DNA of 64,000 bases from an uncultured Gammaproteobacteria bacterium (GTDB lineage Bacteria; Patescibacteriota; Microgenomatia; Woykebacterales; RBG-16-39-9b): positions 209,739 to 273,738 of the forward strand of contig OZ246414.1 of assembly GCA_965231125.1 (NCBI GenBank), in the 5' to 3' direction. Shown in pieces: positions 15,633-59,208 of the stretch. The notes below the pieces were generated by a model that searched no databases, had not been told where the DNA came from, and saw only the letters and a list, made by a program, of their open reading frames with translations. Made by a program: the position numbers and the translations under genes. Within the stretch, counting starts at the first letter, position 1. Each line of letters begins with the position of its first letter.

Positions 15633-15856
15633 TGGTTAGACTAGCAAATATATCTGGCCGAAAAGCTGTAAAAGCTTTTGGCAAGGCAGGGTACACTCAC
15701 GTAAGAACCACTGGCGATCACGCCATCCTAACTAAACCCAAATTTCATACTATTTCAGTTCCTCTTTACAAAGAAGTCAAACCGTTCCTGTTAAAGTCGC
15801 AAATTAAAAGAGCCGGTATAACAGAAGAAGAGTTTTTAGAACTACTTAAAAAATGA
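15632..15856 (+). CDS. hicA: type II toxin HicA (YcfA-like mRNA interferase)
   Basis: About 74 aa, motif GYTHVRTTGDHAILTKP. TGATG overlap with hicB and ATGA overlap with the downstream dehydrogenase. Confidence 0.75.
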   Translation: MVRLANISGRKAVKAFGKAGYTHVRTTGDHAILTKPKFHTISVPLYKEVKPFLLKSQIKRAGITEEEFLELLKK

Positions 15857-36043: not shown

Positions 36044-36949
36044 ATGGTAGATAAAGTTAGAGTGATTCCTTCGGGAAATGATAAGGAAGGGACTCTTATA
36101 ATAGAGCCATTACCCCAAAGTTATGGCGTGACTTTGGGTAACTCTCTGCGCCGTGTTTTGCTTACTTCCCTTCCTGGGGCGGCTATAACCCAAGTAAAAA
36201 TCTCGGGAGTATCCCACGAGTACTCCACGATTAAAGGGGTAAAAGAAGACGTGGTCGAGATACTTTTGAACCTAAAAGGGGTAAGACTTCAAATTGATGG
36301 CGATAAGCCGGTTAAATTGACTCTCGATGTAAAAGGTCCAAAAGAAGTGTTGGCAAAAGATATAGAAGTACCGTCCGGAGTGAAAATAGCAAATCCGGAT
36401 CATTATATTACTACTCTCTCAGATTCCAAAACGAAGCTATCCGTCGATATTAAGGCGGAAACAGGTTTTGGCTACGTACCTGTCGAATCGCGACGCTCTT
36501 TGGGGGTGGGGACTATTCCCCTGGACGCAACTTTCAGCCCAGTCCTAAAAGTTAATTATAAAGTTGAGGCGACACGGGTTGGTCAAATAACAAACTTCGA
36601 TAAGCTGATAATTACGGTAACTACAGATGGGACAATTACACCCGCCGAGGCAGTAAAACAAGCCTCAAAAATATTAACAGACTACTTCAATGTTTTGGTT
36701 GAACAAAAGAAACCGACAAAGGAAGATAAGCAGGAAAAGGCTCCTCGACCAAAGATCGAAAAAGACGCTCTTGTTGAAGAGCTGGAACTTTCCACTCGGA
36801 TAACTAATTCTCTACGTTCGGCTGGTATTGATACGGTTGAGAAGCTGCTTAAAACACCAAAGGAAGATTTGGTTAAATTGAAGAATATGGGCGCAAAATC
36901 CATATCGGATATTGAAGAAAAACTAAAAGAGAAAGGATTAGTCAGCTGA
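36044..36949 (+). CDS. rpoA: DNA-directed RNA polymerase subunit alpha
   Basis: Alpha NTD and CTD homology; GGTGGAGGAGG RBS. Confidence 0.95.
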   Translation: MVDKVRVIPSGNDKEGTLIIEPLPQSYGVTLGNSLRRVLLTSLPGAAITQVKISGVSHEYSTIKGVKEDVVEILLNLKGVRLQIDGDKPVKLTLDVKGPKEVLAKDIEVPSGVKIANPDHYITTLSDSKTKLSVDIKAETGFGYVPVESRRSLGVGTIPLDATFSPVLKVNYKVEATRVGQITNFDKLIITVTTDGTITPAEAVKQASKILTDYFNVLVEQKKPTKEDKQEKAPRPKIEKDALVEELELSTRITNSLRSAGIDTVEKLLKTPKEDLVKLKNMGAKSISDIEEKLKEKGLVS

Positions 36950-37488
36950 TGGCGCACCGGATTTTTGGCAGGAAGTTAAGTCGGACGACTAATCAAAGAA
37001 AAGCACTTTTGCGGTCTCTTGCAAACTCGGTTATTTTGTATGAGAAAGTGAAAACCACAAAAGCAAAAGCAAAAGCCGTAAAACCTTTTCTTGAGAAACT
37101 GATAACAGTTTCTAAAAATGATAGTATTTTCGCCAGACGTACTTTGGTAGCAAAGCTTGGGTTGGAAAATTCAGCCAGTAAACTTTTGGAGGTTATTGGC
37201 CCAACTTTTAAAGAAAGGCCGGGCGGGTATTTGAGATTAACAAAATTATCACCCCGCTCCGGCGATTCAGCCAATATGGTTGTCATTGAGTTTGTCGAGC
37301 AATTGTCCGCTCCAAAAAAGATCGTCAAGGGCAGCGCAGGGGAGCTAAAAACAAAAGAGCCACGAAGGAACCGTTCTTCGGCAGTTAAAAAAGAAACTAA
37401 AAAGACAGCCACCGAAAGTTCGAAAAAAATAAATAAACCCACTAAAAAATCTGCCCCAAAGATAAGCAATGAAAAAAGAGATAAGTAA
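36949..37488 (+). CDS. rplQ: 50S ribosomal protein L17 with a ~55-aa Lys-rich C-terminal extension
   Basis: L17 homology in the first ~120 aa. Confidence 0.92.
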   Translation: MAHRIFGRKLSRTTNQRKALLRSLANSVILYEKVKTTKAKAKAVKPFLEKLITVSKNDSIFARRTLVAKLGLENSASKLLEVIGPTFKERPGGYLRLTKLSPRSGDSANMVVIEFVEQLSAPKKIVKGSAGELKTKEPRRNRSSAVKKETKKTATESSKKINKPTKKSAPKISNEKRDK

Positions 37489-37987
37489 AAAGCCTTCGAC
37501 CCGAGTGAAGGATCAGGGTTCAAAAGTAAAAAGTCAAAATCAAGATAGGGAAAACACTTCTCTCAATAAAACAAGTAAAACTGTACTGGAGAAAAAGTGG
37601 TATCTGGTCGATGCGAAGAATAAAGTTTTGGGAAGGTTAAGTACCAAAATAGCAAAATTACTGATGGGCAAGGACAAGGCAGGTTTTGTTCGTTATAAAG
37701 ATAGTGGTGATTATGTAGTGGTGATAAATGCCGCCAAAATTGCGGTCTCAGGTACTAAAGAGAAGAATAAAAAATATTACAACTATTCTGGGTATCCAAG
37801 TGGGTTAAAAGAAACTACCTTAGGAAAGCTGCGAGCCCGAAAACCTGAGGAGATAGTTCGTCACGCAGTTTCGGGAATGCTACCTAAAAACCGTTTAGCC
37901 AAGGCCATTATAAAAAAACTTTACATCTACCCAAAAGAAGACCATCCCCACGAACCTCAGAAGCCGACTGTAGTGGAGTTGAACTAA
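37469..37987 (+). CDS. rplM: 50S ribosomal protein L13 with an N-terminal extension (start uncertain; GTG 37505 is an alternative)
   Basis: WYLVDAKNKVLGRLS core. Confidence 0.88.
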   Translation: MKKEISKKPSTRVKDQGSKVKSQNQDRENTSLNKTSKTVLEKKWYLVDAKNKVLGRLSTKIAKLLMGKDKAGFVRYKDSGDYVVVINAAKIAVSGTKEKNKKYYNYSGYPSGLKETTLGKLRARKPEEIVRHAVSGMLPKNRLAKAIIKKLYIYPKEDHPHEPQKPTVVELN

Positions 37988-37988
37988 T

Positions 37989-38504
37989 ATGCCGAGAACT
38001 AAAAAAAGTACAGTTGAAAAGGTAGATAAAGAAAAGGCCAAAGACACTCTCACGACCGAGAAAAAAACGGCTGAACAAAGTGAAGTTAAAGAAAAAGCCA
38101 AGGCGAAAGAAAAAAAGGAATTTTTTCAAGGACTTGGAAGAAGAAAAGAGTCTATTGCTAGGGTGCGCCTCTTTCTTAAAAAAGGTGATCTTTTGGTAAA
38201 TAATAAACCGATCTCCGAATATTTTTCTGAAGCAGCCGCCCAAAAAGTTTACGAAGAACCGCTTCGCACTGTTAACCGGCTTGGTCAAGTCTCCGGGACT
38301 ATAAAAGTTCGAGGTGGGGGTAGAGTTGGCCAACTTGGAGCCGTCACCCACGGAATTTCCAGGGCCTTGCTTGATCTGGACGAGAGTTTTCGAGCTACCC
38401 TTTCAAAGAAAAAACTTCTAACTCGAGATTCCCGTGTCAAAGAGAGGCGTAAATACGGCCACGCTGGTAAAGCTAGAAAAATGAAGCAGAGTCCGAAACG
38501 TTAG
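37989..38504 (+). CDS. rpsI: 30S ribosomal protein S9 with a ~40-aa K/E-rich N-terminal extension
   Basis: GLGRRKESIARV...C-terminal ...AGKARKMKQSPKR. Confidence 0.93.
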   Translation: MPRTKKSTVEKVDKEKAKDTLTTEKKTAEQSEVKEKAKAKEKKEFFQGLGRRKESIARVRLFLKKGDLLVNNKPISEYFSEAAAQKVYEEPLRTVNRLGQVSGTIKVRGGGRVGQLGAVTHGISRALLDLDESFRATLSKKKLLTRDSRVKERRKYGHAGKARKMKQSPKR

Positions 38505-38695
38505 TATTTGTTGTGGAAGATCGCTTGGTAAAGAAAGAGGATACCAACTAGTCCAGGTAGTAGGGATAAGAGTTCGAAGAAACGGATGTGGATTTGACCA
38601 ATTAGCAAGGCGATTAGCAAAAGCACAAACCCCCAAACAAAAGTTGGAATTCTTTTAATGACCACCCAGTTTATATTCCTTAACCATTCCTCCAT
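38501..38695 (-). CDS. possible small hydrophobic protein (64 aa, 2 TM)
   Basis: Convergent with rpsI, 4-nt overlap, no clear RBS. Confidence 0.25.
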   Translation of the reverse strand: MEEWLRNINWVVIKRIPTFVWGFVLLLIALLIGQIHIRFFELLSLLPGLVGILFLYQAIFHNKY

Positions 38696-38828
38696 ATTTA
38701 CATTATATCAAAGTAACAAATCTGCTTTTAAACCCTGTAGTTGATTAACGTTTACTAAAGGATTAATATGTAAACAATCGAAAAGACTTTTTAGTAAGTT
38801 CGATCAATCAAAAGTGAAGGAGAAGGTC

Positions 38829-40049
38829 ATGGATAGAGTCGTTGTGACTGGTAGAGGGGCAGTCTGCCCTTTGGCAAACAACTGGCCTGATAGTTGGGCG
38901 GCAATGCTGCAAGGGCGCTCTGGTATTGGCCCACTCACAAAGTTTGACGCGCCTTGGTTCGAAGCCGGAATTGTTGGTGAAGTGCGTAATTTCCATCCGG
39001 AGGAAGTTATCCCTGGAAAAGTTTTAAAGAGAGCGGCGATTCCTAGTCATTACGCACTTGTTGCTACTCACGAAGCAGTTGCCGAGTCGGGGCTGGTAAT
39101 TAACGAGTCGAACACAGAAGATGTGGGAGTGATCTTTGGCTCGGCGGGTGGAGGGTACGAACGTATTTTGAAGCAGGAGCATGTCCTTTTTGAAGAAAGT
39201 GCTCGACGCGTTAGCTCATTTACAATCGCCCACATGTTACCAGATGCTTCTTCCGGGCACATCGCCATTGCGCTTGGGGCAAAAGGACCAAACTACTGCC
39301 CGACCGCTGCCTGCGCTACCGGAACAGTCGCAGTTGGCGAAGCCATGGAGACAATCCGTCGCGGCGATGCCAAAGCCATAATTTGCGGTGGTACAGACGA
39401 GCCGATTCTGCCGGTACTGCTTGCCGGATTTCAAGCTTTAAAAGGCATGGCGACGGAAGCTTGCAGGCCTTTCGATCTACGTCGTGACGGTTTTGTTGTC
39501 GGCGAAGGGGCGGCAGCACTAGTGCTAGAAAGCCTGGACTTTGCGAGAGCCCGCGGTGCCCGCGTCTACGCGGAAGTTGTTGGCTATGGTTCAGCGGCTG
39601 ATGCCTTCCATATGGAAAAGCCGGATGAGTGGGGAGATGGGATCGGTCGGGCTATGGTAATGGCCTTACGAAAAGCAGATATTTCACCTGAAGAAGCCGA
39701 CTACATAAATGCGCATGGGACTGGTACGCCGTTGAACGACAAGGTGGAGACATTAGCCATAAGGAGCGTCTTCGGCTCGCATGCGTACGAACTTGCTGTC
39801 AGCTCAACGAAGTCGATGGTCGGTCATCTCATGGGTGGTGCTGGCGCTCTTGAGGCGTTGGCAACAGTTAGCGCAATTAACGACGAAATGATCCCGCCGA
39901 CCATCAACTACGAAACGCCGGATCCGGAGTGTGATTTGGATTATGTACCAAATACCGCCCGCCGAAGAAAGATAGATGTAGCGTTGTCCAACTCGCTTGG
40001 TCTTGGTGGGCACAACGCTTGCGTAGTCTTTAGGAAATTTGAGGGTTAG
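38829..40049 (+). CDS. fabF: beta-ketoacyl-ACP synthase II-like condensing enzyme
   Basis: Cys-His-His triad contexts (AACATG, AHGTGT, GHLMGGAG). AAGGAG RBS 8 nt before ATG 38829. GC about 50-52% versus about 40% in the flanks. Confidence 0.88.
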   Translation: MDRVVVTGRGAVCPLANNWPDSWAAMLQGRSGIGPLTKFDAPWFEAGIVGEVRNFHPEEVIPGKVLKRAAIPSHYALVATHEAVAESGLVINESNTEDVGVIFGSAGGGYERILKQEHVLFEESARRVSSFTIAHMLPDASSGHIAIALGAKGPNYCPTAACATGTVAVGEAMETIRRGDAKAIICGGTDEPILPVLLAGFQALKGMATEACRPFDLRRDGFVVGEGAAALVLESLDFARARGARVYAEVVGYGSAADAFHMEKPDEWGDGIGRAMVMALRKADISPEEADYINAHGTGTPLNDKVETLAIRSVFGSHAYELAVSSTKSMVGHLMGGAGALEALATVSAINDEMIPPTINYETPDPECDLDYVPNTARRRKIDVALSNSLGLGGHNACVVFRKFEG

Positions 40050-40067
40050 GTCAGATAACAGAAATCA

Positions 40068-40103
40068 AAACGGGTGTTCACACGAATGCCCGTTTCTTTT
40101 TTC
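40068..40103 (+). terminator. rho-independent terminator after fabF
   Basis: AACGGG...CCCGTT stem followed by TCTTTTTTC. Confidence 0.6.
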
Positions 40104-40164
40104 TATAAATATTTTTTCTTCCACACTTGGAATTATACTCTATAAGTATTTAAAATTTCAGCTA

Positions 40165-40193
40165 TTGACAAATGCAAATGATTTGCATATAGT
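40165..40193 (+). promoter_or_regulatory. zur promoter TTGACA-17-TATAGT with an embedded 17-nt perfect palindrome ATGCAAATgATTTGCAT (Zur/Fur-box-like operator)
   Basis: The palindrome at 40173..40189 overlaps the spacer and the -10. Confidence 0.6.
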
Positions 40194-40255
40194 TAGCCCA
40201 CGTAAGTGGTCGCAGAACGTGAAGCGATCTATTGCAAGTCAACTACACCTACATT

Positions 40256-40684
40256 ATGCAAAAAGACGTCTTAGAAATATTAAAAGAAAATAAAATAAAA
40301 ATTACCAACGAGAGAAAGGAAATTATTTCAGTTCTTCAAAGTACAAAATTCCCCCTTCGTCCAGCGGATATATTTTTAAGGATTAAGTCAAAGTTGCCTA
40401 AGGCCAACTTGACAACAGTTTACAGAAATTTAGAAATGTTGGAAGGTTTAAGTTTAATTAAAAAGTTGACTTTCGATAAAGACAGTTTCTCTTATGAATT
40501 AGTAACAAACCGGCCCCACCACCATCATGTTGTGTGTAAAAACTGCGGTAAGATTGAAGATTTAAATAATATTCCAGAAAAATTTGTCAAAGAAATTTCG
40601 GAAAGCACAAAATTTAAAATCGAAGACCACAACTTAGAATTCTTTGGTATTTGTGAATCCTGCTCAAAGGAGTTAAACAGATGA
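40256..40684 (+). CDS. zur: Fur-family metalloregulator, probably Zur
   Basis: HHHH...CxxC...CxxC motifs, winged-helix N-terminus, and immediate linkage to znuACB. Confidence 0.8.
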   Translation: MQKDVLEILKENKIKITNERKEIISVLQSTKFPLRPADIFLRIKSKLPKANLTTVYRNLEMLEGLSLIKKLTFDKDSFSYELVTNRPHHHHVVCKNCGKIEDLNNIPEKFVKEISESTKFKIEDHNLEFFGICESCSKELNR

Positions 40685-41598
40685 GTAACAGAAAATTGCT
40701 TTCGCTGATCGCGCTTATTATTTTAGTTCTGTCAGCGGGGTATTTTGTTTTCCGAAACTACCACCCTTCAGAAAGTTCCGGAAAGTTAAAAGTGGCAACT
40801 AGTTTCTACTCACTTTACTTTTTCACTAAGGAAATTGGAGGAGACAAGGTTGATGTTACCAACATTACTCCGGCTGGAGCAGAACCGCATGATCATGATC
40901 CTTCAACAGGTGACATTGTTAAGATTGAAGAAAGCAAAATGCTGGTTCTCAATGGTGCAGTAGAATCTTGGGGACACAAGATTAAGGACATTTTGAAGGG
41001 AAGTAATGTCCTGGTAGTTACTGCCGGAGAAGGTTTGCTAACCAAACAACTAACTGAAGGTGGGCAGACTGGTGTGGACCCGCACGTTTGGCTCGACCCT
41101 ATATTAGCCAAGCAAGAAGCTCACGCGATTGCCCAAGGATTGATTAAAGTCGATCCAGCTGACACTACCTTTTATCAACACAACGAAAAGAAACTCGACG
41201 GCGAGCTTGATCAGCTGGATCAGGATTATAGAAAAGGTTTGGTAAGTTGTCAGCAAAAAGACATTATAACTTCTCACGCCGCCTTTGCTTATCTTGGCTC
41301 TCGCTACGGGCTTAACCAAGTAGCAATCTCTGGTCTTTCGCCAGATGCTGAGCCATCAGCCGCCCAACTAGCTGATGCAACCAACTTTGCCAAATCGCAC
41401 AACGTTAGATATATTTTCTTTGAGAGCTTGGTCAGTCCAAAGCTCTCCGACACCATTGCTAACGAAGTTGGCGCGAAGACATTAGTTCTTGATCCGATCG
41501 AAGGTCTGACCGATAATGATATTAAGGCAGGCAAGACCTACTTTACGGTGATGCAAGACAATCTAAACAATCTGCGTATCGCTCTGTCATGCAAATAG
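40681..41598 (+). CDS. znuA: metal (zinc) ABC transporter substrate-binding protein, ZnuA/TroA family
   Basis: Cluster-9 SBP homology with a short His/Asp-rich loop (PHDHDP). Confidence 0.85.
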   Translation: MSNRKLLSLIALIILVLSAGYFVFRNYHPSESSGKLKVATSFYSLYFFTKEIGGDKVDVTNITPAGAEPHDHDPSTGDIVKIEESKMLVLNGAVESWGHKIKDILKGSNVLVVTAGEGLLTKQLTEGGQTGVDPHVWLDPILAKQEAHAIAQGLIKVDPADTTFYQHNEKKLDGELDQLDQDYRKGLVSCQQKDIITSHAAFAYLGSRYGLNQVAISGLSPDAEPSAAQLADATNFAKSHNVRYIFFESLVSPKLSDTIANEVGAKTLVLDPIEGLTDNDIKAGKTYFTVMQDNLNNLRIALSCK

Positions 41599-42338
41599 AT
41601 CACAGCAAAAGTATTATTGAAGTTGATAAAGTTTCCTTTGCTTATAACGGTGAAGATGCGATTAAAGACGTGTCAATAGCCGTTCACAGAGGAGATTACT
41701 TAGGAATAATTGGTCCTAATGGCGGTGGGAAATCAACATTATTGAAAATAATGCTTGGGCTTTTGCACCCCAAAGAAGGAGTAATTAAACTTTTCAATCA
41801 GTCTATTGATGAATTTAAGGATTGGTCCAAAATTGGTTACGTCCCTCAAAAACCACCGAATTTCGAATTAAATTTTCCAGTGAGTGTTCGAGAAGTAGTC
41901 GCCATGGGTCGTTACGGAAAACGTGGTTTATTACGGTTTCCGACCAAAGAGGATGGAGAAAAAGTTAACAAAGCCTTGAGTCAAGTTGAAATGACAGAGT
42001 TTGCCGGTCGGCAAATTACCGAACTTTCGGGAGGACAGCAGCAAAGAGTTTTTATTGCCCGGGCACTAGTGAGCGAACCAGAGGTAATCTTTCTCGATGA
42101 ACCAACTGCCGGAGTTGATATTAAAACCCAAAAGAGTTTCTACGCACTGCTTGAAAAATTAAACCGAGATTTCGACCTCACTTTAGTTCTAATTTCCCAC
42201 GAACTTGACGTTTTGGCCCACGAGGCTACTGAACTGGCGTATATAAACAGAACTCTTGAGTATTACGGCGACCCAAAAGAATTTTTGAAGGGGGACTATT
42301 ACCACCAGTTTATTGGCAAGGGAGAGCCTCACCACTAA
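41589..42338 (+). CDS. znuC: metal ABC transporter ATP-binding protein
   Basis: Walker A GPNGGGKST, signature LSGGQQQRV, Walker B FLDEP. Confidence 0.9.
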   Translation: MQIDHSKSIIEVDKVSFAYNGEDAIKDVSIAVHRGDYLGIIGPNGGGKSTLLKIMLGLLHPKEGVIKLFNQSIDEFKDWSKIGYVPQKPPNFELNFPVSVREVVAMGRYGKRGLLRFPTKEDGEKVNKALSQVEMTEFAGRQITELSGGQQQRVFIARALVSEPEVIFLDEPTAGVDIKTQKSFYALLEKLNRDFDLTLVLISHELDVLAHEATELAYINRTLEYYGDPKEFLKGDYYHQFIGKGEPHH

Positions 42339-43132
42339 TGCTTTCGATTTTCCAATACAGTTTCATTGTGCGTGGTTTTGAGGCCGGCGTCGTCGTCGCC
42401 TTAATTGCTCCGTTGATTGGAATTTTTTTGGTGCTGCGTCGCTACTCTTTGATCGCCGATACACTAGCACATGTTTCGCTAGCTGGAGTGGCCATTGGGT
42501 TGCTTTTAAAGGTGAGCCCATTAATTACCGCTATTATTGTATCTGTTGCGTCCTCAGCCGCTATTGAACGTTTGCGTATTTCCAAAAAAGTTTATGGAGA
42601 AAGTGCCCTTGCAATTTTTCTTTCCGGAAGCTTAGCGTTAGCAATTGTTCTGATTAGTGCGGCCCATGGGTTCAATATTGATATCTTCAACTATCTCTTT
42701 GGATCAATTTTGACAGTGAGACAGACTGATATTTACCTTATCGCTTCCTTAGGAATAGTGATTTTGGTAGCAGTAGCGGCCTTTTATAAGGAATTACTTT
42801 TCGTTACTTTTGACGAGGAGGCGGCAGCTGTTAGCGGAATTCCGACTCGGTTAATCAATACAATGCTGATCGTCTTGGCTGCTTTTACAGTCGCCTTGGC
42901 AATTCCAGTAGTTGGAGTTTTGTTAATCGCGGCTTTGATCGTAATTCCAGTAGTAACTGCCCTCCAATTTAAAAGGGGTTTCAAACAAACTATTCTTATT
43001 GCGGAAGCAATCTCAGTTTTCTCGGTAATAGCGGGAATATTCACCTCTTTCTACTTAAATCTTTCCGCAGGTGGAACTATAGTCTTAATTGCGTTAGCAA
43101 TATTTTTAATTGCGTTAATTATTAACGATTGA
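42338..43132 (+). CDS. znuB: metal ABC transporter permease
   Basis: ZnuB/TroCD-type permease homology. Confidence 0.88.
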   Translation: MLSIFQYSFIVRGFEAGVVVALIAPLIGIFLVLRRYSLIADTLAHVSLAGVAIGLLLKVSPLITAIIVSVASSAAIERLRISKKVYGESALAIFLSGSLALAIVLISAAHGFNIDIFNYLFGSILTVRQTDIYLIASLGIVILVAVAAFYKELLFVTFDEEAAAVSGIPTRLINTMLIVLAAFTVALAIPVVGVLLIAALIVIPVVTALQFKRGFKQTILIAEAISVFSVIAGIFTSFYLNLSAGGTIVLIALAIFLIALIIND

Positions 43133-43157
43133 AAAAACCGTTTGTTATAATTAGTTT

Positions 43158-43529
43158 ATGGGCAGTAACGTTGAGATAAACGATACTTTACAGATTTCAA
43201 AAGAACAAGGTTTCCCGGGGGAATTAGATTTCGAAAGACACAAAGAAAAACCTTTTACAGCGGAGGATTTTAAGGAGAAAGTTTTTGAATTCAAAAACAA
43301 AAAGGGTGTGCGGATTTATAAAAGTCCGCCAGTCCGAAACTTTTTAGTTGAAAATAAAGCCGGCAAGTGGCTTTATTGGGGGTTGATCTATATCTTAGAG
43401 GTGACTAACAATTACGAGAAACAAATAACCTCAGGAAAGTATAAAATAATTTACATATATACACCTGAGGAAATGAGGCAGGCCCATAAATTGATAGATA
43501 GAGATCACGAAACAGGTTTTTTTGACTAA
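43158..43529 (+). CDS. hypothetical protein
   Basis: 123 aa, no recognisable motif. Confidence 0.45.
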   Translation: MGSNVEINDTLQISKEQGFPGELDFERHKEKPFTAEDFKEKVFEFKNKKGVRIYKSPPVRNFLVENKAGKWLYWGLIYILEVTNNYEKQITSGKYKIIYIYTPEEMRQAHKLIDRDHETGFFD

Positions 43530-43594
43530 ATTTATTTAGTTTCCGTCAACCGATATCTGCCTTCGCACCCGTAATCTTTTTACAATAACCGCTC

Positions 43595-43623
43595 TTGACT
43601 AAAATTTGATGCCAGAGTACAAT
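43595..43623 (+). promoter_or_regulatory. sigma70-like promoter TTGACT-17-TACAAT for the cupredoxin gene
   Basis: Consensus spacing, 25 nt upstream of the ATG. Confidence 0.5.
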
Positions 43624-43647
43624 TAGTTTTTGCAAGAAAGGTAGCAC

Positions 43648-44082
43648 ATGCGAAATATCATCATTGGTGTAATAATAATTGTTTTGATAATAGTTGGTGT
43701 ATGGTACTTTTCAGGTAAGAACAAAGGGTACAATACCCCAACTAACAGCTCGCAGAACCCATCTACTTCAAGCAGCCAAACCAAGTCTAACCAGACTGGC
43801 ACGACCCAAAAGCAATCTCAAGCATCTACCAGTGCTGTTACAATCCAAAACTTTGCTTTTAGCCCGGCGGACATTACCGTCAAAAAAGGTACTAAGGTGA
43901 CTTGGACCAATCAAGACAGCACTGCCCACACCGTAACTGAGACGGATGGTCAAAATGGGCCGGGTAGCGGTACTTTAAACCAAGGACAAACTTATTCTTT
44001 CACTTTTGACAGTGTTGGTACGTTCCACTACCACTGCTCGATCCACACTAGTATGACAGGTATGGTGACTGTTACCGAATAA
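43648..44082 (+). CDS. plastocyanin/azurin-type cupredoxin, membrane-anchored with a Ser/Thr/Gln-rich linker
   Basis: Type-1 copper ligand set: H in TAHTV and C, H, M in HYHCSIHTSMTGM. Confidence 0.8.
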   Translation: MRNIIIGVIIIVLIIVGVWYFSGKNKGYNTPTNSSQNPSTSSSQTKSNQTGTTQKQSQASTSAVTIQNFAFSPADITVKKGTKVTWTNQDSTAHTVTETDGQNGPGSGTLNQGQTYSFTFDSVGTFHYHCSIHTSMTGMVTVTE

Positions 44083-44273
44083 CACCTGGCAAAGCCTTTA
44101 TCGGGCGTTCTATTCTTTGCAGATTTAACTAGATTTATGATGAGACATTGCTTTGTTTATGTCTGCGTTAGCACCGGCCAGCTTAGCCGCCTTTAGTGAT
44201 TAGTTGAATGGTAATGTAATCTAGCGCAGCCATTTTTTGACAATAGGTTGGTGGTTATGGAAGGGAATCCAAG

Positions 44274-44294
44274 CCGGCCTTGATGAGCCTAGAC
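44274..44294 (+). repeat. island repeat family, short form (D1)
   Basis: CCGGCCTTGATGAGCCTAGAC overlaps the stop of the DoxX-like gene and resembles repeat C. Confidence 0.5.
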
Positions 44295-44609
44295 TTCATT
44301 AGGATTGAGAAACAGATAAACTGGAACGGCTAAGATGCCGATATGTTCTAAAGTGTCGCCTACACTACCAAACCCAGAGACAAGGATCACCCCAATTATC
44401 CAGGCGGCAGCGTAGACAGAGACATATTTTCGGAATAAACCTAAAATCAGGAGAATACCAACTAGACCATCACTTACTCCGATTAGCTTTACAATGGTCT
44501 CGGCCGAAAAAGGTACCACACTAGTTAAAAAAGAATTTTTAACTAATTCTGTGAATTCATCAGGCGCGAAAAAAGCAGTGTAAGAGTTGGCTATAAAAAT
44601 CAGACCCAA
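44289..44609 (-). CDS. DoxX-like small membrane protein (the ORF stays open upstream to about 44690, so the true start is uncertain)
   Basis: Several hydrophobic helices; TTG start in the track. Confidence 0.4.
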   Translation of the reverse strand: MGLIFIANSYTAFFAPDEFTELVKNSFLTSVVPFSAETIVKLIGVSDGLVGILLILGLFRKYVSVYAAAWIIGVILVSGFGSVGDTLEHIGILAVPVYLFLNPNEV

Positions 44610-44734
44610 GCCGACGCCGATTATTTCCGGGGAAAATTTTTTCAGGTTTTGAATAATAATCGGTTGCCTCCAAGTAAAGATTAGTAACAGTTAATTATAT
44701 TTGGAGTATTTTGAAAAAAGCAAGCTTTATTAAA

Positions 44735-44760
44735 CCGGCTGGCCTTGATGGACTCCTCAC
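44735..44760 (+). repeat. island repeat family (D2)
   Basis: CCGGCTGGCCTTGATGGACTCCTCAC, similar to the 5' parts of repeats A and B. Confidence 0.5.
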
Positions 44761-44912
44761 TAGATTTGTGATATAATTCATTTATTGACAATTTAATATT
44801 TACTGGACGTTGAAAGGCATCTAGTAACTGGAGTTGAATGTTTAAGTAAGTTGTCATTGCGTGACCCGCCCTGAAATCTTGGACATCGAAACCAGTTGTC
44901 GGATGCCTTTTT

Positions 44913-45263
44913 TTGTATCTTAATCTTAACAAAATTATGATAGATTATAAGTTTTTACCGAAAGATTTAAAGCAATACCTCGGGCCCAATTACAATTGGA
45001 TAATTGCTTCCGGAGAAAGTAAGTTAACTGCTAAAAATCAGACCAACGATTTACGTTCGATTCTTAATTCAATTGGGAGATTTAACTACGCAGATTTTAG
45101 AAGGTTCATTCAAATAAAACGGGAATTAGGTGAATCTAATCTATATTTAAACTCCCGTATTTTGGGAGCGAGGCAATTTGCGCAGTTTTTGAAACAACAA
45201 GAATTTGCTGTTGACGCGCAGCTTTTAACCTACCCTATCTTCAAGCCTGAGTTAGTTCATTAG
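44913..45263 (+). pseudogene. 5' fragment of a tyrosine recombinase/integrase (N-terminal SAM-like core-binding domain only)
   Basis: About 116 aa matching the integrase N-terminal helix pattern (LTAKNQTNDLRSILNSIG...FRRFIQ...LGARQFAQFL). The catalytic R-K-H-R-H-Y domain is absent, and the ORF stops 12 nt before repeat A. Confidence 0.55.
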
Positions 45264-45275
45264 GTATTTGAATTT

Positions 45276-45357
45276 CTGGTTGGCCTTATTGGACCGCACT
45301 TCGTTGAAACTTCGCGCGGCTGGCGATTTGGAGGAACCTCTGGCCTCAATTAAGTTC
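45276..45357 (+). repeat. island repeat family, long form (A, ~82 nt)
   Basis: About 80% identical to B over its length (GGCCTTATTGGACCGCACTTCG...GGCGATTTGGAGGAACCTCTGGCCTCAATTAAGTTC). Confidence 0.7.
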
Positions 45358-45391
45358 TTTTGATTTTTCTCCTATACACCTAAACCATTTC

Positions 45392-45847
45392 TTAGGTTGC
45401 TAGCTCTTTACTAAATTTTGTGAAAATTCTTCTAATTTCCCTTTCAAGCCTCTCCTGTGTTATTCCGTTTCGATTGGCTTCTACAACAATAATAGCTAAT
45501 TCGTAAAGAGATTCTCTAGGAATTGTGAAATCAACCCCATGAGCTAATAAAAATACATGTGTAGAAAGAACGGCTGTTCTTTTGTTACCTTCAAATAAAG
45601 GGTGTTCGCAAGCTATCTTAATAAAATAGGCAACTGCGGCGTTTAAAACTGTGGGTTTTACATACTTATTAACAATAGATAGTTGAACTGAGCCAAGAAT
45701 GCTTTCTAGTTTCCCGGGGGTTCTACGGTCGAAAGGTTCAGTTGGGTCGCCAAGACTAATCTGCAAGTTCTCGTAGGCGGTCTTGTAAATCTCTACTGTT
45801 AGATAATTCTTTGGGGGTAGAGTCAGATTCTTTATCATATTTTTCAA
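45392..45847 (-). CDS. doc: Doc (death-on-curing) Fic-family toxin
   Basis: Fic/Doc motif HPLFEGNKRTA and N-terminal GDPTEPFD..PGKLESILGSVQ. Confidence 0.8.
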   Translation of the reverse strand: MKNMIKNLTLPPKNYLTVEIYKTAYENLQISLGDPTEPFDRRTPGKLESILGSVQLSIVNKYVKPTVLNAAVAYFIKIACEHPLFEGNKRTAVLSTHVFLLAHGVDFTIPRESLYELAIIVVEANRNGITQERLEREIRRIFTKFSKELAT

Positions 45848-45926
45848 GCAGCTCGTAAGTTTTGCGGTATTTTTTTATGCTGTGATTAATATTTTTTTGG
45901 ATTATCTTTTTCTCGGAAGTTGTCAT
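45756..45926 (-). CDS. candidate antitoxin partner of Doc (56-aa unlisted ORF)
   Basis: ATG 45926 to TAG 45756, MTTSEKKIIQKNINHSIKKYRKTYELLEKYDKE... It lies immediately upstream of doc and overlaps it out of frame by about 90 nt. No family assignment. Confidence 0.3.
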   Translation of the reverse strand: MTTSEKKIIQKNINHSIKKYRKTYELLEKYDKESDSTPKELSNSRDLQDRLRELAD

Positions 45927-46090
45927 ATGTAGCAGTATACTACAATTCTACAAATAAAGTGAAAATCAAGCAACACTTGACAGGTTTATGCTTTATCACC
46001 AAAGTGCTAGAATAACACCTTGCAGGTGATGTTTTTTGACAAAATAACACTCTAGCGAGTGATGTTTTCTCATCAATTAATGATTCGAAA

Positions 46091-46321
46091 ATGGCAGCTA
46101 TGAAAATTAAAAATTTATTATTGAAAATTATTCTTTCGCTTCTCGGTTTAATTATTCTTACCATTGTTGGCAGCCTTCTTTATTTGAGATTAAGCTGTAA
46201 GGCTATTCAAATTATCAAGACTCATAAGGGCAATACACAATATTCAATAATAAGCCAGCGGGGAGATTCTCACGAACCAGCAAGTTGTAGTGGATTTCCG
46301 GTGGTAGTTGGAATGGAATAG
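46091..46321 (+). CDS. possible small membrane protein
   Basis: 76 aa with one hydrophobic helix; weak support. Confidence 0.25.
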   Translation: MAAMKIKNLLLKIILSLLGLIILTIVGSLLYLRLSCKAIQIIKTHKGNTQYSIISQRGDSHEPASCSGFPVVVGME

Positions 46322-46356
46322 TATTTTTAGAAAAAGAGACTCAGGCACGAATTTCA

Positions 46357-46381
46357 TTGGTCGGCCTTGTTAGGCTCAGAC
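46357..46381 (+). repeat. island repeat family, short form (C)
   Basis: TTGGTCGGCCTTGTTAGGCTCAGAC. Its first 15 nt are identical to the start of B, and it contains a GTTAGGC core. Confidence 0.65.
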
Positions 46382-46412
46382 AGTTGGCGGGGCCCAGTGG
46401 CGAGCTCAGTCC

Positions 46413-46778
46413 TCAGCTCACCGCTTTCTTCACGAGCGCGCCGATCTTTGCCTCTTCGGCGGCAGTCAACCCCTTCAGCGCGAAGGCGATTGGCCACATG
46501 TGGCCTTCGTCGAGGTTCGCCTCGTCGTTGAAACCGAGCGTCATGTACCTCTCCTTGAACTTCTCCCCGCCGCGGAAGAAGCAGATAACCTTGCCGTCCT
46601 TGGCATACGCGGGCATCCCGTACCAGACCCTCGGCGAGAGGGTTGGCGCGCTCTCTTTGATGATAGCATGGAGCCGCTCGCCCATGGCGCGATACGGTCC
46701 CGGCATCGCGTCGATCGCCGCGAGCACCGCGGCCTCGCCGTCGGCCTTCTTCGTCGCCTTCTTGTCGACTACTTGCAT
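46413..46778 (-). CDS. DUF1801/YdhG-like protein, strongly GC-rich (probable horizontal acquisition)
   Basis: About 60% GC against a ~40% background. DUF1801-like pattern ([25 protein letters not shown]...[17 protein letters not shown]). Confidence 0.7.
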
Positions 46779-46929
46779 ATAGGGTTCCTTTCTACTGCGA
46801 TTAATATTTTTGTAAAACCACGTTAATTGGTATTAAAGTTATTGTCAATGGTTTTAGTATGAGTTCCAAAAACGTTACTATCCCCACAGAAAAAGAAGTT
46901 TCTGTCGAAAATATTTAGCTTCAAAAACC

Positions 46930-47015
46930 TTGGTCGGCCTTGTTGGACTACACTTCGCTAAAGCTCGCGTAGCAGGCGATTTCGAGGAACCTCTGTCCGC
47001 AATTGAGCTCGTTAG
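46930..47015 (+). repeat. island repeat family, long form (B, ~86 nt)
   Basis: TTGGTCGGCCTTGTTGGACTACACTTCGCTAAAGCTCGCGTAGCAGGCGATTTCGAGGAACCTCTGTCCGCAATTGAGCTCGTTAG. Confidence 0.7.
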
Positions 47016-47027
47016 TTAAAACACAGC

Positions 47028-47720
47028 TTATTCAGATTTACCGCCCGTTGTTAAAAGCCGGTCGTGATTATATCGGAGTAACATTATCCCAATAAGTAGA
47101 GCAAAGCCAAATAAATACCCGCTAATTACATCGGATAACCAGTGTAGGTGTAGATAGATACGAGACGGGCCAACTAACAACACGACAGTTAACTCGACTA
47201 ATAGAAGCATTAAACGAAGTTTTTTATTTTTGATGTACAACAAGGTAAGAATTGCTAAATAGCCAAAGAAAACAACGTATGAAGCAGTATGGCCCGAAGG
47301 ATAACAAGTCTCGTGCCAAAAAGTTTTTTGAAGAAAGGAAAGATTGAACACCTCGTGAAAGGAAACAATTTTGCTAAAGGGAGAAGCTGGGCATTCTACT
47401 CGAAAGATGAGTTTTACCACGAATTCAGTTAAAAACCAGCCGGAAAAGCTCAATGGAAGCATTTTTGCTTCAAAATTATTCTTCTTGCGACGGAAATAAA
47501 CAAACAGCCATATTAAAACACCTACAATTGGCACATAGAGAAAAGCCAGAAACCTAGAAACATAATAAAGGAGATTGTTCAGTGAGAAAGGTAGGTTTTG
47601 GTTAAGATAAACGTCAATCGGTGTTAGTTGCCCACTCATTACTATAAAAGTGAATACGACAAAGGCCACAAGAAGCAGGCAAAAAATAATTGAATAGGTG
47701 CTGTACTTTAGAGAAAGCAT
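47028..47720 (-). CDS. PAP2-family membrane phosphatase
   Basis: PSGH and SRxxxxxHxxxD motifs (YPSGHTA; SRIYLHLHWLSD); 6 TM. Confidence 0.75.
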   Translation of the reverse strand: MLSLKYSTYSIIFCLLLVAFVVFTFIVMSGQLTPIDVYLNQNLPFSLNNLLYYVSRFLAFLYVPIVGVLIWLFVYFRRKKNNFEAKMLPLSFSGWFLTEFVVKLIFRVECPASPFSKIVSFHEVFNLSFLQKTFWHETCYPSGHTASYVVFFGYLAILTLLYIKNKKLRLMLLLVELTVVLLVGPSRIYLHLHWLSDVISGYLFGFALLIGIMLLRYNHDRLLTTGGKSE

Positions 47721-47810
47721 TTGATGCTATTTTGGATTTTACACCAAAAATGCTAGAATAACACCCAACGCTACTAAAGTTATGCTGGGCGATCCCACAT
47801 TTCACCAAGG

Positions 47811-48236
47811 CTATTTATGATGCTTTTGAAGAAATTTTTTTGGGGTTGCTATCTGAATTTTTGGAATTATCCTTTGCGATTCTTCAGTTAGAATGTGTTT
47901 TCTATCCAGACTAACTAAAAAATCTGACTTGGATTCTTGGGCTGAAATAAGAATGTGCCGATCTTTTTGATCTATGTCTTTTAATTTCTCAAGCTTTTCT
48001 TCCTCCGGAAAAGGTAAAATTTTGAAGTAATCTTCTTCCAGCCAGTTTAGAAACAGTTGATATTTTTCTTGATTTAATTTCCTTCTGATAGCTTCTTCGG
48101 ACTCTGCCACCACACCTTCATTTATCCAACCGTCAAGTTTCCCTTTCTCTATCAGATTAATTATTTCAAAAGAGCCGCCGGTTTGTGAACCAGCGGCAGC
48201 AACAATTACAGAGGAGTCTAGGAAAACCTTTATCAT
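47811..48236 (-). CDS. PIN-domain toxin (VapC-like)
   Basis: N-terminal VFLDSSVIVAA and acidic residues consistent with a PIN fold. ATGA overlap with the upstream antitoxin. Confidence 0.65.
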   Translation of the reverse strand: MIKVFLDSSVIVAAAGSQTGGSFEIINLIEKGKLDGWINEGVVAESEEAIRRKLNQEKYQLFLNWLEEDYFKILPFPEEEKLEKLKDIDQKDRHILISAQESKSDFLVSLDRKHILTEESQRIIPKIQIATPKKFLQKHHK

Positions 48237-48454
48237 TCTAACTTATCTTCTTCAAGAAAACTCTCTATCTCTTTATCAGTGTATTTCCGCAAATATTTGG
48301 TTGGAATACTTTTCAGCGGCTTAATTATGAGTTCGCCTTCTTTAATACTTACATCAAGGAGAGTATTTTCATCTATCTCTAGTTGTTTGCGAAAGGTCGC
48401 AGGAATAGTAATTTGGCCCTTTGGTAATGGTTTTACAACTTCGGAAGTCTTCAT
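48233..48454 (-). CDS. AbrB/MazE-type antitoxin (VapB-like)
   Basis: SpoVT/AbrB swapped-hairpin pattern KGQITIPATFRKQLEI. Confidence 0.65.
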   Translation of the reverse strand: MKTSEVVKPLPKGQITIPATFRKQLEIDENTLLDVSIKEGELIIKPLKSIPTKYLRKYTDKEIESFLEEDKLE

Positions 48455-48498
48455 ATAGTTAGAATTTTAGAATTTCTAACTTTCTTTGTCAAGTATGT

Positions 48499-48572
48499 TG
48501 GTCGGGGAGGAGGGAATCGGACCCACGATACCGCACCCCCAGCGCGGTGTATTACCACTATACTACTCCCCG
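48499..48572 (-). tRNA. tRNA-Pro (anticodon GGG), CCA encoded
   Basis: 7-bp acceptor stem CGGGGAG/CTCCCCG, D-arm GTAT-AGTGGTA-ATAC, anticodon loop CTGGGGG, discriminator A plus CCA. One T-T mismatch in the T-stem and C55 in place of U. Confidence 0.75.
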
Positions 48573-55760: not shown

Positions 55761-56099
55761 TTAAGTTGTTGGGGCTGGTCCTATTCGACTCTCAAGATCG
55801 GGTACTGAGTCGAGTATGGCCTTGATCTGCGCTAGGGCCAGGAGCTGGGGATCGTGAGCGCTGAGCGAGAACGGGCCGCCGCCAATTTTCCTTCTTTCCG
55901 CGATCTGATCATACAAAGTCCTAAGCCGCTTAAGGTACCAGTTGTAGAACTCTTCCTTCGTGATACCCATACCCGTTACTGCGGGGCAGAGTGCTACCGA
56001 AGTTGCCAGACCCTGCAAGATCATGAACTCGTTGGTAGGGTTCTGTGGCGCTTTATTGCTCGCGTCGCTTACTACACGCTCCAATGTCGGTATGCCCAT
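55761..56099 (-). CDS. hypothetical protein, GC-elevated (~52%)
   Basis: 112 aa, no motif; flanked by a hairpin-dense 3' region at 55540..55760. Confidence 0.4.
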   Translation of the reverse strand: MGIPTLERVVSDASNKAPQNPTNEFMILQGLATSVALCPAVTGMGITKEEFYNWYLKRLRTLYDQIAERRKIGGGPFSLSAHDPQLLALAQIKAILDSVPDLESRIGPAPTT

Positions 56100-57085: not shown

Positions 57086-58366
57086 ATGGATTCCGCCCGA
57101 GATATTATTGACGAAGCCAAAAAAGTTCTCTACGGAAATTTAAAAACCGGGTACTCCACATGGGCCAAAAGCGAATACAAGTACATCAGTCCTTCGCGAG
57201 ACCACTACCACCACCAATGGTTTTGGGATTCTTGCTTTCACGCAATCGTTCTCTCCCATTTTGACATTGAGCTTGCCAAGAATGAGATTCGCTCGCTTCT
57301 TCGCGCCCAGCGGAAAAATGGTTTTATTCCCCACGTAATTTACTGGCGGGAAGGGAGGTTTAGACGGCCAATCGCTGGTCTTGGAGCGCTGTTAGAGTCC
57401 AAACTTTCCCTTGAACCAACATCTACAGAAATGATTCAACCACCTCTCATTGCCCAGGCGGTCGAGGCAATTTACAAGAAAGAAAAAAATCTAAGTTTTC
57501 TAATTGAGGTAGTCCCAAAAATTAGAGAATACTATAAATGGATCGCTGAAAATCGCGATCCGGACAAGGACAACCTAATTTCAATAATTGCCCCGTACGA
57601 ATCCGGCCTGGACCAAAGCCCGGCATTTGATCCAATTCTCGGTGTTGAAAATCGTAATATCTTATTAATAGCTTTGGCTGGCCGGAAGGTTACGTTCAAA
57701 AATTTACTTAGAGACTACTCGCTTGATAAGATTTTTGCCGCCGATTATTTCAATGTTGAGGATGTGTTTGTAAATTCGATTTATATATACAATCTGAAAA
57801 TTATGGCGAACCTACTTCACGAAATTGATGCAGAGGGAGATGCCCGCTGGTTTTTGCAAAAATACCACTTGGCAAAAGAGGCTCTGGTAAAAAAATGTTT
57901 TGATAAGGAAAATAAAATCTTTTTTGACATATATTCAAAAGAAGAAAAAATGTCCAAGATTATTACCATAAAGAGTTTGACGCCACTTATTTTGGATATT
58001 GATGAGAAGATTGTTAAGGCGTTGGTGGCGCGTCATTTGGAAAATACAAATGAATTTAATCTCCCGTACCCACTACCAACCGTTGCTCGAAATGAGCCTT
58101 CGTTTGCGCCGTCGCCTTCGACTATTGCTAAAGAACCGGTTATTTGGCGAGGCCCAACTTGGGTAAACACCAATTGGTATTTAGTTAAAGGTTTAAGGAA
58201 ACACGGTTTTAATGAGTTTGCCCAGACGATCGTCGATCGCACTGTAGAGCTCGTAAAAAGAGGCGGTTTTAGAGAATTTTTTGATCCCTTCACCGGCGAA
58301 GGATATGGCGCCTCATATTTTGGCTGGTCCACCTTAGTTGTTGATATGATGGCAGAACCCGAATGA
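57086..58366 (+). CDS. six-hairpin glycoside hydrolase (GH63/GH15/glycogen-debranching-like)
   Basis: (alpha/alpha)6-type GH pattern. ATG 57086 is preferred over the track start 57050. Confidence 0.6.
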   Translation: MDSARDIIDEAKKVLYGNLKTGYSTWAKSEYKYISPSRDHYHHQWFWDSCFHAIVLSHFDIELAKNEIRSLLRAQRKNGFIPHVIYWREGRFRRPIAGLGALLESKLSLEPTSTEMIQPPLIAQAVEAIYKKEKNLSFLIEVVPKIREYYKWIAENRDPDKDNLISIIAPYESGLDQSPAFDPILGVENRNILLIALAGRKVTFKNLLRDYSLDKIFAADYFNVEDVFVNSIYIYNLKIMANLLHEIDAEGDARWFLQKYHLAKEALVKKCFDKENKIFFDIYSKEEKMSKIITIKSLTPLILDIDEKIVKALVARHLENTNEFNLPYPLPTVARNEPSFAPSPSTIAKEPVIWRGPTWVNTNWYLVKGLRKHGFNEFAQTIVDRTVELVKRGGFREFFDPFTGEGYGASYFGWSTLVVDMMAEPE

Positions 58367-59208
58367 ACCACTATTTAGCGGAGTATTTGGGAGAAAGTTA
58401 TAAAGAGGCTCATATAGACTCGTCTCACGAAGGTTATTCTTGTCGCGCCGTCTTAGTTGGAGAGCGGGTTGCCCCTGTTGTTACAATTGTTCCAGGATTT
58501 AGTTCTGAGATTGAGCAAATGGCTCCTTTCATAAAAAAATTCCGGCTGTCAGGTTACAGCGTTGTCTGTCTTTCACAACCAGGAGCACCGACTTCGGCTC
58601 AGCCTAATCATTTTTACAAACACCAAGGATTTTCTGGTTTTGCTGCTTCGGTTAAAAAAGCACTGGCGCGTTTTGGAATCCCAAAAACTTTTATTTATGC
58701 GTCTTCTACAGGGGCAGCGGCCGCCGCTTCTTTAGCGTCCGAAGAGGCAAGTTTGGTGCAGTCAATTGTTGCCATGAACCCAGCGGCCCTTTTTTCCCAA
58801 TCACCATTTTCGGCCGCCTATGGATCCATCTTTACCTTGTTCGTGGATTGGAGAAGGCACGCTGGCGTTGTTAAGGATGCGCCTCGCCCACCAAAACCAA
58901 AAGTTAATTTCTTAGTTTCAACCTATCGTCACTACTGGGGTTTTTGGAATCTTTCCAAGATTGCGGCGCAAGATTCAACTTTTGAAAATCTAAAAAAAGT
59001 TTCGGCACCGGTACTAATTTTAGTTGGCGAAAAAGACACCCTAGCGCAGTTTGGAAAAATTAAAGAGCGAGTTGAGAATTTTAAAAATGTCCAGGTTTAT
59101 TCAATGGCCGGTTTTTCTCATTCAGACCCGAATTCGGAAGAAAAGATTGAGGAGACTATCGAAAAAGCAGCCTGCTGGTTTGAAAAAAGTGAACCCGCTT
59201 ACCGGTGA
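58363..59208 (+). CDS. alpha/beta-fold hydrolase
   Basis: Nucleophile elbow YASSTG and a C-terminal GFSHSD; ATGA overlap with the GH gene. Confidence 0.6.
   Translation: MNHYLAEYLGESYKEAHIDSSHEGYSCRAVLVGERVAPVVTIVPGFSSEIEQMAPFIKKFRLSGYSVVCLSQPGAPTSAQPNHFYKHQGFSGFAASVKKALARFGIPKTFIYASSTGAAAAASLASEEASLVQSIVAMNPAALFSQSPFSAAYGSIFTLFVDWRRHAGVVKDAPRPPKPKVNFLVSTYRHYWGFWNLSKIAAQDSTFENLKKVSAPVLILVGEKDTLAQFGKIKERVENFKNVQVYSMAGFSHSDPNSEEKIEETIEKAACWFEKSEPAYR

Follow-up and report, generated by a model that had tools for sequence, protein, structure and literature searches.

A gene for a β-ketoacyl-acyl carrier protein synthase II of the fabF type (hereafter the KAS) lies at 38829–40049 on the plus strand of a 64,000-nucleotide stretch of contig OZ246414.1 (hereafter the window), whose RpoA points to a bacterium of the Candidate Phyla Radiation (CPR). 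It is highly probable that this gene is foreign, derived from Chloroflexota, and that it belongs to a variable island with a tRNA gene at its border. That its product is a working enzyme appears fairly probable. The account we favour combines these elements, and as a whole it is held with only modest confidence: a Chloroflexota fabF was laterally acquired, has been retained, and probably still encodes a functional condensing enzyme dependent on acyl carrier protein (ACP), with partners, if any, encoded elsewhere in the genome. We infer the expression of the KAS, its selection in this host and the existence of such partners.

The KAS open reading frame (ORF) consists of 406 uninterrupted codons, begins with an ATG at 38829 and stops at 40049; a GTG in the same frame at 38814 falls within the Shine–Dalgarno sequence and is an unlikely start. 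Its annotation rests on homology, on its nesting in a phylogenetic tree, on the coincidence of a GC-rich island with the ORF and on the residues that it retains. The 406-residue protein comprises the Pfam domains PF00109 (residues 2–237) and PF02801 (residues 247–362), and exceeds the cut-offs of two NCBIfam models, TIGR03150, the fabF equivalog (517.4 bits vs a cut-off of 493.75), and NF005589 (504.7 bits vs 387). Its best solved relative is Bacillus subtilis FabF (4ls5/4ls6; E ~2e-128 to 3e-128), to which residues 3–405 could be aligned, and the fold was assigned from this full-length sequence match to solved FabF structures. An AlphaFold2 model, computed from a shallow alignment of 31 sequences, reached a mean predicted local distance difference test score of 49 and was discarded.

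Residue equivalences refer to the numbering of Escherichia coli FabF, whose catalytic residues align as expected. The catalytic set of the KAS, C162, H296, H333 and K328, corresponds to E. coli C163, H303, H340 and K335. The malonyl-binding residues T298 and T300 (E. coli T305 and T307) and the loop-coordinating residues D258 and N396 (E. coli Asp265 and Asn404) are also retained. All six ACP-docking positions are occupied by basic residues (K64, K67, R68, R126, R127 and K205), the E. coli set being K65, R68, K69, R127, K128 and R206. K65 and K69 of E. coli FabF are interface residues for AcpP that matter for docking, and the roles of D265, N404 and the GFGG gate have likewise been described (PMC7138838). 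A first, sequence-only reading of the window had described an intact Cys-His-His condensing enzyme. With C162, H296 and H333 in place, TIGR03150 above its cut-off and the ORF unbroken, this description stands, and judged by its sequence the KAS is an intact FabF/KAS II.

The relatives of the protein lie outside the lineage that carries it. In a search of 5.8 billion clustered proteins, the sole near-identical match was a variant of the same gene in a JGI metagenome; the next matches were 71–62% identical, and nothing was found between 71% and ~100% identity. All 8 matches with a taxonomic name are labelled 'Chloroflexi bacterium' or 'Dehalococcoidia bacterium'. The sequence-only reading had suggested acquisition and proposed a phylogeny as a check. 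A neighbour-joining tree, with the FabF of E. coli and of B. subtilis as root and 100 bootstrap replicates, nests the KAS within a Chloroflexi/Dehalococcoidia clade: 70 of the 100 replicates place it beside or inside a 78-member subclade and 2 place it outside the whole clade, and named Chloroflexota sequences flank it on either side. B. subtilis FabF stays outside the clade in 100/100 replicates. Three clade members, drawn from both subclades, have readable DNA, with a GC content of ~0.70 and a GC content at third codon positions (GC3) of 0.87–0.94, in genomes of ~67–71% GC. In each of the three, fabD is immediately upstream of fabF, with a 4-nt overlap in two contexts and a distance of 88 nt in the third; these are housekeeping neighbourhoods, one of which has fabH 9 kb away. 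Since the donor clade is broad, with conserved synteny, and the single recipient is nested in it, transfer from Chloroflexota to Woykebacteria is the sole direction that fits.

The identity of the recipient follows from RpoA. The protein encoded in the window is 85% identical to its counterpart in two metagenome-assembled genomes, one labelled Candidatus Woykebacteria and the other 'Patescibacteria group', and 58–73% identical to that of ~15 further loci; where the labels of these are informative, they read Woykebacteria, Woesebacteria, Saccharimonadales or Patescibacteria. Several of these related loci bear implausible automatic labels (Gammaproteobacteria, Nanoarchaeia). Identity to Chloroflexi RpoA is ~47%. 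On this comparison the host is Candidatus Woykebacteria, a CPR bacterium of the Microgenomates type.

Base composition sets the KAS apart from its surroundings. Its GC content of 0.533 exceeds the mean of the 65 other ORFs in the window (0.418, sd 0.037) by ~11.5 points (z ~3), close to the 10 points estimated in the sequence-only reading, and its GC3 is 0.496 vs 0.374 (sd 0.057). The GC content steps sharply at the ends of the ORF, from 0.287 to 0.553 upstream and from 0.47 to 0.31 downstream, the value of 0.287 being that of positions 38675–38824, directly before the gene. Within the 9.8-kb island described below, only the KAS ORF is GC-rich and the remainder has a host-like composition. The highest GC3 in the window, 0.602, belongs to another ORF (55761–56099, minus strand; 112 aa, GC 0.537, no Pfam match), which may be another foreign gene.

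A comparison of codon usage had also been proposed as a check. The distance of the KAS in relative synonymous codon usage is 0.150 to the host and 0.290 to the Chloroflexota clade members; host genes themselves lie at 0.105 ± 0.018, with a maximum of 0.134. The gene is thus atypical in GC content and just outside the host range in codon usage, but it is near the host and far from the clade, and its choices of leucine and glycine codons are nearly identical to those of the host. The fraction of Gly, Ala, Arg and Pro residues (0.355 in the KAS vs 0.253 in the host) shows an amino acid composition that is still donor-like and that accounts for much of the raised GC content at first and second codon positions. 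Where the encoded amino acid is identical, 61–66% of codons differ between the KAS and clade members, and ~40% differ within the clade. Comparison with the three clade members that have readable DNA gives a dN of 0.22–0.31 and a saturated dS (undefined by NG86), so that the statement is a qualitative one: dN is much smaller than dS. Synonymous sites already near host usage speak against a fresh insertion. With a donor as GC-rich as its sampled relatives, there would have been extensive synonymous turnover within the CPR genome with the protein preserved, which would be a signature of purifying selection.

The KAS is the leftmost gene of a variable island that is specific to its lineage and has a tRNA gene at its border. 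The island, delimited by its gene content and by synteny with relatives, extends over 9.8 kb (38696–48498) and contains the KAS, zur-znuACB, genes for a cupredoxin, a DoxX-like protein, a Fic protein, a DUF1801 protein and a PAP2 phosphatase, a PIN/MazE toxin–antitoxin pair and hypothetical genes; no integrase is found among them, and no meaningful direct or inverted repeats flank the KAS ORF. The left border is formed by small64 (38501–38695, minus strand), which encodes a predicted membrane protein of 64 residues without a Pfam match. This gene sits between S9, with which the ribosomal/rpoA super-operon ends, and the KAS; it is convergent with S9, whose stop it overlaps by 4 nt. Homologues 50–73% identical adjoin S9 in three relatives (L005, L006 and L009), and one of 58% identity lies ~0.8 kb downstream of S9 in L019; by this synteny, small64 is a small gene particular to the lineage, with which the ribosomal synteny block closes. 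The right border is a tRNA-Pro(GGG) gene (48499–48572, minus strand), past which conserved synteny resumes in the window and in five relatives (L006, L007, L011, L013 and L014). RecA is encoded within a few kb of this tRNA gene in all of these relatives except L007, accompanied by RecX and RNase Y in L006, L011 and L013, and homologues of DUF7544 and/or RDD proteins are present in three of the four.

The interval between S9 and tRNA-Pro(GGG) measures 0.24 kb in L007, 0.76 kb in L013, 1.07 kb in L014, 2.1 kb in L006, 3.8 kb in L011 and 10 kb in the window. No KAS is present in this interval in the five relatives, and 16 related loci likewise lack one in the 10 kb that follow rpoA. These comparisons mark the interval as a hot spot for variable gene content among Woykebacteria. 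The sequence-only reading had placed the KAS as an insertion between the ribosomal super-operon and zur-znu. The position is right, with small64 also lying between, but the insertion was drawn too narrowly, as the whole 9.8 kb, including zur-znu, is variable. The suggestion of acquisition is borne out by the nesting of the KAS in the Chloroflexota clade, by its absence from the syntenic interval in the related loci and by its location in a variable island beside a tRNA gene. Upstream of zur-znuACB there is a near-consensus promoter, TTGACA-17-TATAGT (40165–40193), whose spacer contains a perfect 17-nt palindrome, ATGCAAATGATTTGCAT (40172–40188); this is probably a Zur operator, through which the zinc-uptake operon would be autoregulated.

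The KAS is equipped with its own signals for translation and termination. A Shine–Dalgarno sequence read from the DNA, GAAGGAG (38816–38822, plus strand), lies in AT-rich DNA of host type, 6 nt ahead of the ATG. Downstream, a pattern scan and folding identified an intrinsic terminator (40068–40104, plus strand) with a 12-bp stem, a 4-nt loop and a T-run, the stem at 40068–40095 being followed by CTTTTTTCT. Its dG is -18.9 kcal/mol (z -5.49 vs shuffled sequences), and 0/200 shuffles fold equally well. The strong Shine–Dalgarno sequence and the terminator proposed in the sequence-only reading were therefore recovered, and the hairpin after the stop accounts for that reading having ended the feature at 40103. 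The KAS and the divergent small64 are separated by an AT-rich spacer of 133 bp (38696–38828), in which a pattern scan located a sigma70-like promoter for small64 on the minus strand (38731–38702). On the KAS side, a weak candidate matching 8/12 positions, TTGATT-17-TAATAT, was noted by eye at ~38743–38771. Since the pattern scan found no plus-strand terminator between the S9 stop and the KAS, the gene may possibly be transcribed by read-through from the rpoA-L17-L13-S9 operon.

These data suggest the following course of events. A Candidatus Woykebacteria lineage would have captured fabF from a Dehalococcoidia-like donor within Chloroflexota, keeping only the fabF ORF and losing the fabD that precedes it in donor-type contexts. 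The ORF would then have been framed by AT-rich DNA of host type, with its own Shine–Dalgarno sequence and terminator, at the edge of the island by tRNA-Pro. During long residence, its synonymous codons would have become almost host-like, with the catalytic, malonyl-binding and ACP-docking residues preserved. Because these residues were kept despite the turnover of codons, the KAS is most likely still a working ACP-dependent condensing enzyme. An acyl group would be transferred to Cys162, malonyl-ACP would be decarboxylated with the assistance of His296 and His333, and a Claisen condensation would yield 3-oxoacyl-ACP. The retained docking patch implies that the KAS still needs ACP, which a lone KAS cannot supply; ACP and the supply of malonyl-ACP would be encoded elsewhere in the ~915-kb genome.

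Several observations weigh against this account, the first being the absence of partners nearby. The search for genes of type II fatty acid synthesis (FAS II) covered ~80 kb, from 7.5 kb to the left of the window to 8 kb to its right, and it is for this ~9% of the ~915-kb genome that the KAS is an orphan. Neither Pfam labels nor Pfam scans of the remaining ORFs revealed ACP, AcpS, FabD, FabH, FabG, FabZ or FabI in this region. A hidden Markov model of ACP, built from E. coli and B. subtilis sequences, gave no match at E<1 in six-frame translations of the window and none in any CPR locus that was analysed. The remark in the sequence-only reading that fabH, fabD, fabG and acpP are missing from the window agrees with all three approaches. 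Its expectation that the lineage lacks fatty acid synthesis is shared by the literature, in which CPR bacteria are described as being without complete synthesis (PMC7242380, PMC12455944, PMC4736985) and FAS II partner genes as generally absent from their genomes (PMC7242380, PMC12455944).

The sequence of the KAS itself adds to these difficulties. Its root-to-tip distance of 0.319 is the longest of 120 clade members (the others have 0.230 ± 0.029), and it is altered at 12 of 147 clade-invariant columns, as compared with a median of 1 and a maximum of 5 in other members. Among the changes, G16A, M69A, G124S and P130S fall at positions where conservation extends to E. coli and B. subtilis. A private deletion of 5–6 residues falls in the loop before ACRPFD, just after K205, the equivalent of R206, in the region corresponding to E. 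coli 209–218. The long branch, the changes at invariant sites and the loop deletion would also fit relaxed constraint. Furthermore, the KAS is known from one species-level population only, and a consensus scan of the plus strand upstream of the gene found no sigma70-like promoter. Finally, the argument from amelioration presumes a donor of high GC content, and an unsampled donor of ~50% GC combined with a recent transfer would produce the same codon picture.

The main rival explanation, which we regard as rather unlikely, takes the KAS to be an inert passenger: it would have arrived by lateral transfer, would lack partners anywhere in the genome, and would be useless but not yet decayed. It draws on most of the difficulties just listed, namely the lack of partner genes in the region searched, the general absence of FAS II from CPR (PMC7242380, PMC4736985), the divergence of the protein, its restriction to a single population and the missing promoter match, and also on the hypervariable nature of an island that harbours toxin–antitoxin and Fic genes. 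Against a passenger of this kind stands a 406-codon ORF that is intact and has kept every catalytic, malonyl-binding and docking residue. Moreover, host-like codons in a gene whose clade has a GC3 of 0.87–0.94 imply many synonymous changes, none of them disabling, and dN is far below the saturated dS. The clean Shine–Dalgarno sequence and the strong terminator also speak against a passenger, and small CPR genomes tend to shed useless DNA.

A second rival, which seems improbable, holds that the KAS has been repurposed to act without a FAS II of its own, either on acyl chains or carriers of a host organism or in a side reaction such as malonyl decarboxylation or the formation of a 3-oxoacyl product for another pathway. 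The gate and the pocket are relevant here; the role of the GFGG gate has been described (PMC7138838). The gate loop reads GLGG in the KAS in place of the highly conserved GFGG, with Phe400 replaced by Leu392 and the three glycines present; Leu is also found in 118/119 of the other clade members. Relative to E. coli FabF, Ile108 is replaced by Gly107, Leu111 by Tyr110 and Thr270 by Glu263, and the clade as a whole shows Gly, Tyr and either Glu or Val at these positions. His268 is kept in the KAS and is Asp in 118/119 clade members. In this large clade of uncultured Chloroflexota/Dehalococcoidia (loci L002, L090 and L092), loop 2 of the fabF product encoded beside fabD has Asp-Met-Glu/Val in place of the canonical His-Met-Thr. 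The enzyme appears to be the housekeeping KAS II of these organisms, and for such an enzyme the architecture of the gate is unusual.

The unusual gate and pocket could be read in favour of repurposing, as could the accelerated, lineage-specific change in the KAS, including the loop deletion just after the docking residue K205. CPR bacteria are thought to recycle the lipids of other bacteria (PMC7242380, PMC12455944), and the window contains genes of a lipid-scavenging type. Two genes on the plus strand (12102–12785 and 58363–59208) encode alpha/beta hydrolases with Hydrolase_4/Abhydrolase Pfam matches, and a PAP2 phosphatase is encoded on the minus strand at 47028–47720. We take the two hydrolases to be similar to lysophospholipases or monoacylglycerol lipases, and together with the PAP2 gene they fit the scavenging lifestyle that has been proposed for CPR. 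Three points tell against repurposing. As the traits of the gate and the pocket are clade-wide, they were inherited from Chloroflexota, where the gene has fabD as its neighbour in a housekeeping setting, and did not arise as adaptations to a CPR host. A single condensation leads to a 3-oxoacyl thioester, which needs a reductase, a dehydratase and an enoyl reductase before it can enter membranes; none of these was seen in the ~80 kb. Lastly, the intact docking patch still implies a carrier protein. The proposal in the sequence-only reading that such orphan enzymes act on host-derived acyl chains is accordingly unsupported and biochemically incomplete, a speculation to which we attach little probability. 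We think as little of its most specific form, in which a CPR bacterium without fatty acid synthesis would keep a GLGG-gated KAS II of Chloroflexota origin under selection as a stand-alone tool, for example to lengthen or remodel acyl chains that it scavenges from a Chloroflexota partner, with a borrowed or minimal protein as carrier. Were this stand-alone use true, it would suggest that the Woykebacteria lineage has Chloroflexota as its physical host.

Vertical descent, with the KAS as a relic of a FAS II present in the common ancestor of CPR and Chloroflexota and lost in nearly all other CPR, was rejected as very improbable. Some rooted bacterial phylogenies do put CPR near Chloroflexota. The KAS, however, is 70% identical to Chloroflexi proteins, in comparison with 47% for RpoA, and it is nested inside a clade of Chloroflexi and Dehalococcoidia names and not outside it; this gap in identity and this nesting led to the rejection. 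The absence of the gene from the 16 related loci, the empty range from 71% to 100% identity, the variable island and a composition unlike that of the host also count against descent.

The locus was recovered repeatedly. An NCBI contig of 915,171 bp encodes exactly this protein, a Logan contig (run SRR6155504) matches the window at 100% identity for 11.8 kb, across both KAS junctions, and a JGI contig (3300010391, 116 kb) is 99.89% identical over 21 kb, with one single-nucleotide polymorphism in the KAS (39328 T/G, Val/Gly) at a density equal to that of the flanks. A Chloroflexi fragment misjoined to a CPR contig during assembly or binning, as the match of the GC island to a single gene might suggest, is excluded for practical purposes and is scarcely conceivable, since both junctions are reproduced in independent assemblies, the polymorphism density of the KAS equals that of its flanks, its codon usage is close to that of the host and far from that of the Chloroflexi clade, and the closest Chloroflexi protein is just 71% identical, so that co-occurring donor reads offer no explanation. 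Within the library of papers that was searched, none cites SRR6155504, 3300010391 or Ga0136847.

Other features of the window concern the translation apparatus. The ribosomal proteins L17 (C-terminal), L13 (N-terminal) and S9 (N-terminal), encoded at 36949–38504, carry extensions of 40–60 residues rich in Lys and Glu; these are poorly conserved among relatives, in which tblastn matches begin at about residue 41–45. A HicB/HicA toxin–antitoxin pair (15396–15856, plus strand) is located between the genes for malic enzyme and glutamate dehydrogenase, just upstream of the S12-S7-EF-G-EF-Tu block.

A KAS apparently retained in a ~0.9-Mb genome offers a small but concrete handle on how CPR/Patescibacteria supply their membranes with lipids without fatty acid synthesis. 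If ACP and other FAS II genes are present in this genome, the lineage would be an exception, built by gene transfer, to the rule of no lipid synthesis; if they are absent, the KAS would be either a rare selected orphan or a snapshot of a useless acquisition. Its Chloroflexota origin is a testable hint as to the organisms that live with this CPR lineage. Taken alone, it adds to the cases in which a CPR genome has gained, by a familiar route, the single gene of a well-known enzyme. Within the library of papers that was searched, none pairs FabF with CPR, and lipids are not discussed in the Woykebacteria papers.

Comparison with known systems helps to place the KAS. With the canonical FabF of E. 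coli and B. subtilis (TIGR03150) it shares the two-domain thiolase fold, the Cys-His-His-Lys set, Thr298/Thr300, Asp258/Asn396 and the basic docking patch. It differs in its GLGG gate, in the substitutions of Ile108, Leu111 and Thr270 and in the 5–6-residue loop deletion, and it lies outside any fab cluster, with no acpP, fabD, fabG or fabH nearby. The fabD-fabF pair of Chloroflexota (clade P0002–P0120) is closer, at 62–71% identity and with the same GLGG gate, GSAGGGY pocket, ACK/RPFD motif and Glu at 270. Unlike these relatives, the KAS has a GC content of 0.53 and host-like codons, has lost fabD, lacks their N-terminal extension of 10–20 residues, and is marked by His at 268, its private deletion and the longest branch. 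Partial sets of FAS II genes have been reported in other CPR lineages: Nealsonbacteria have a near-complete FAS II without ACP-processing genes (PMC7242380), Peribacteria have only fabG (PMC4736985), and acpP was laterally transferred into Patescibacteria (PMC12455944). The KAS resembles these cases in that genes are isolated or the set incomplete, in a seeming dependence on external lipids and, in one instance, in lateral transfer. It differs from them in being the elongating condensing enzyme itself, in belonging to Woykebacteria (Microgenomates), and in that both a donor clade, Chloroflexota, and a site, the island beside tRNA-Pro, can be named.

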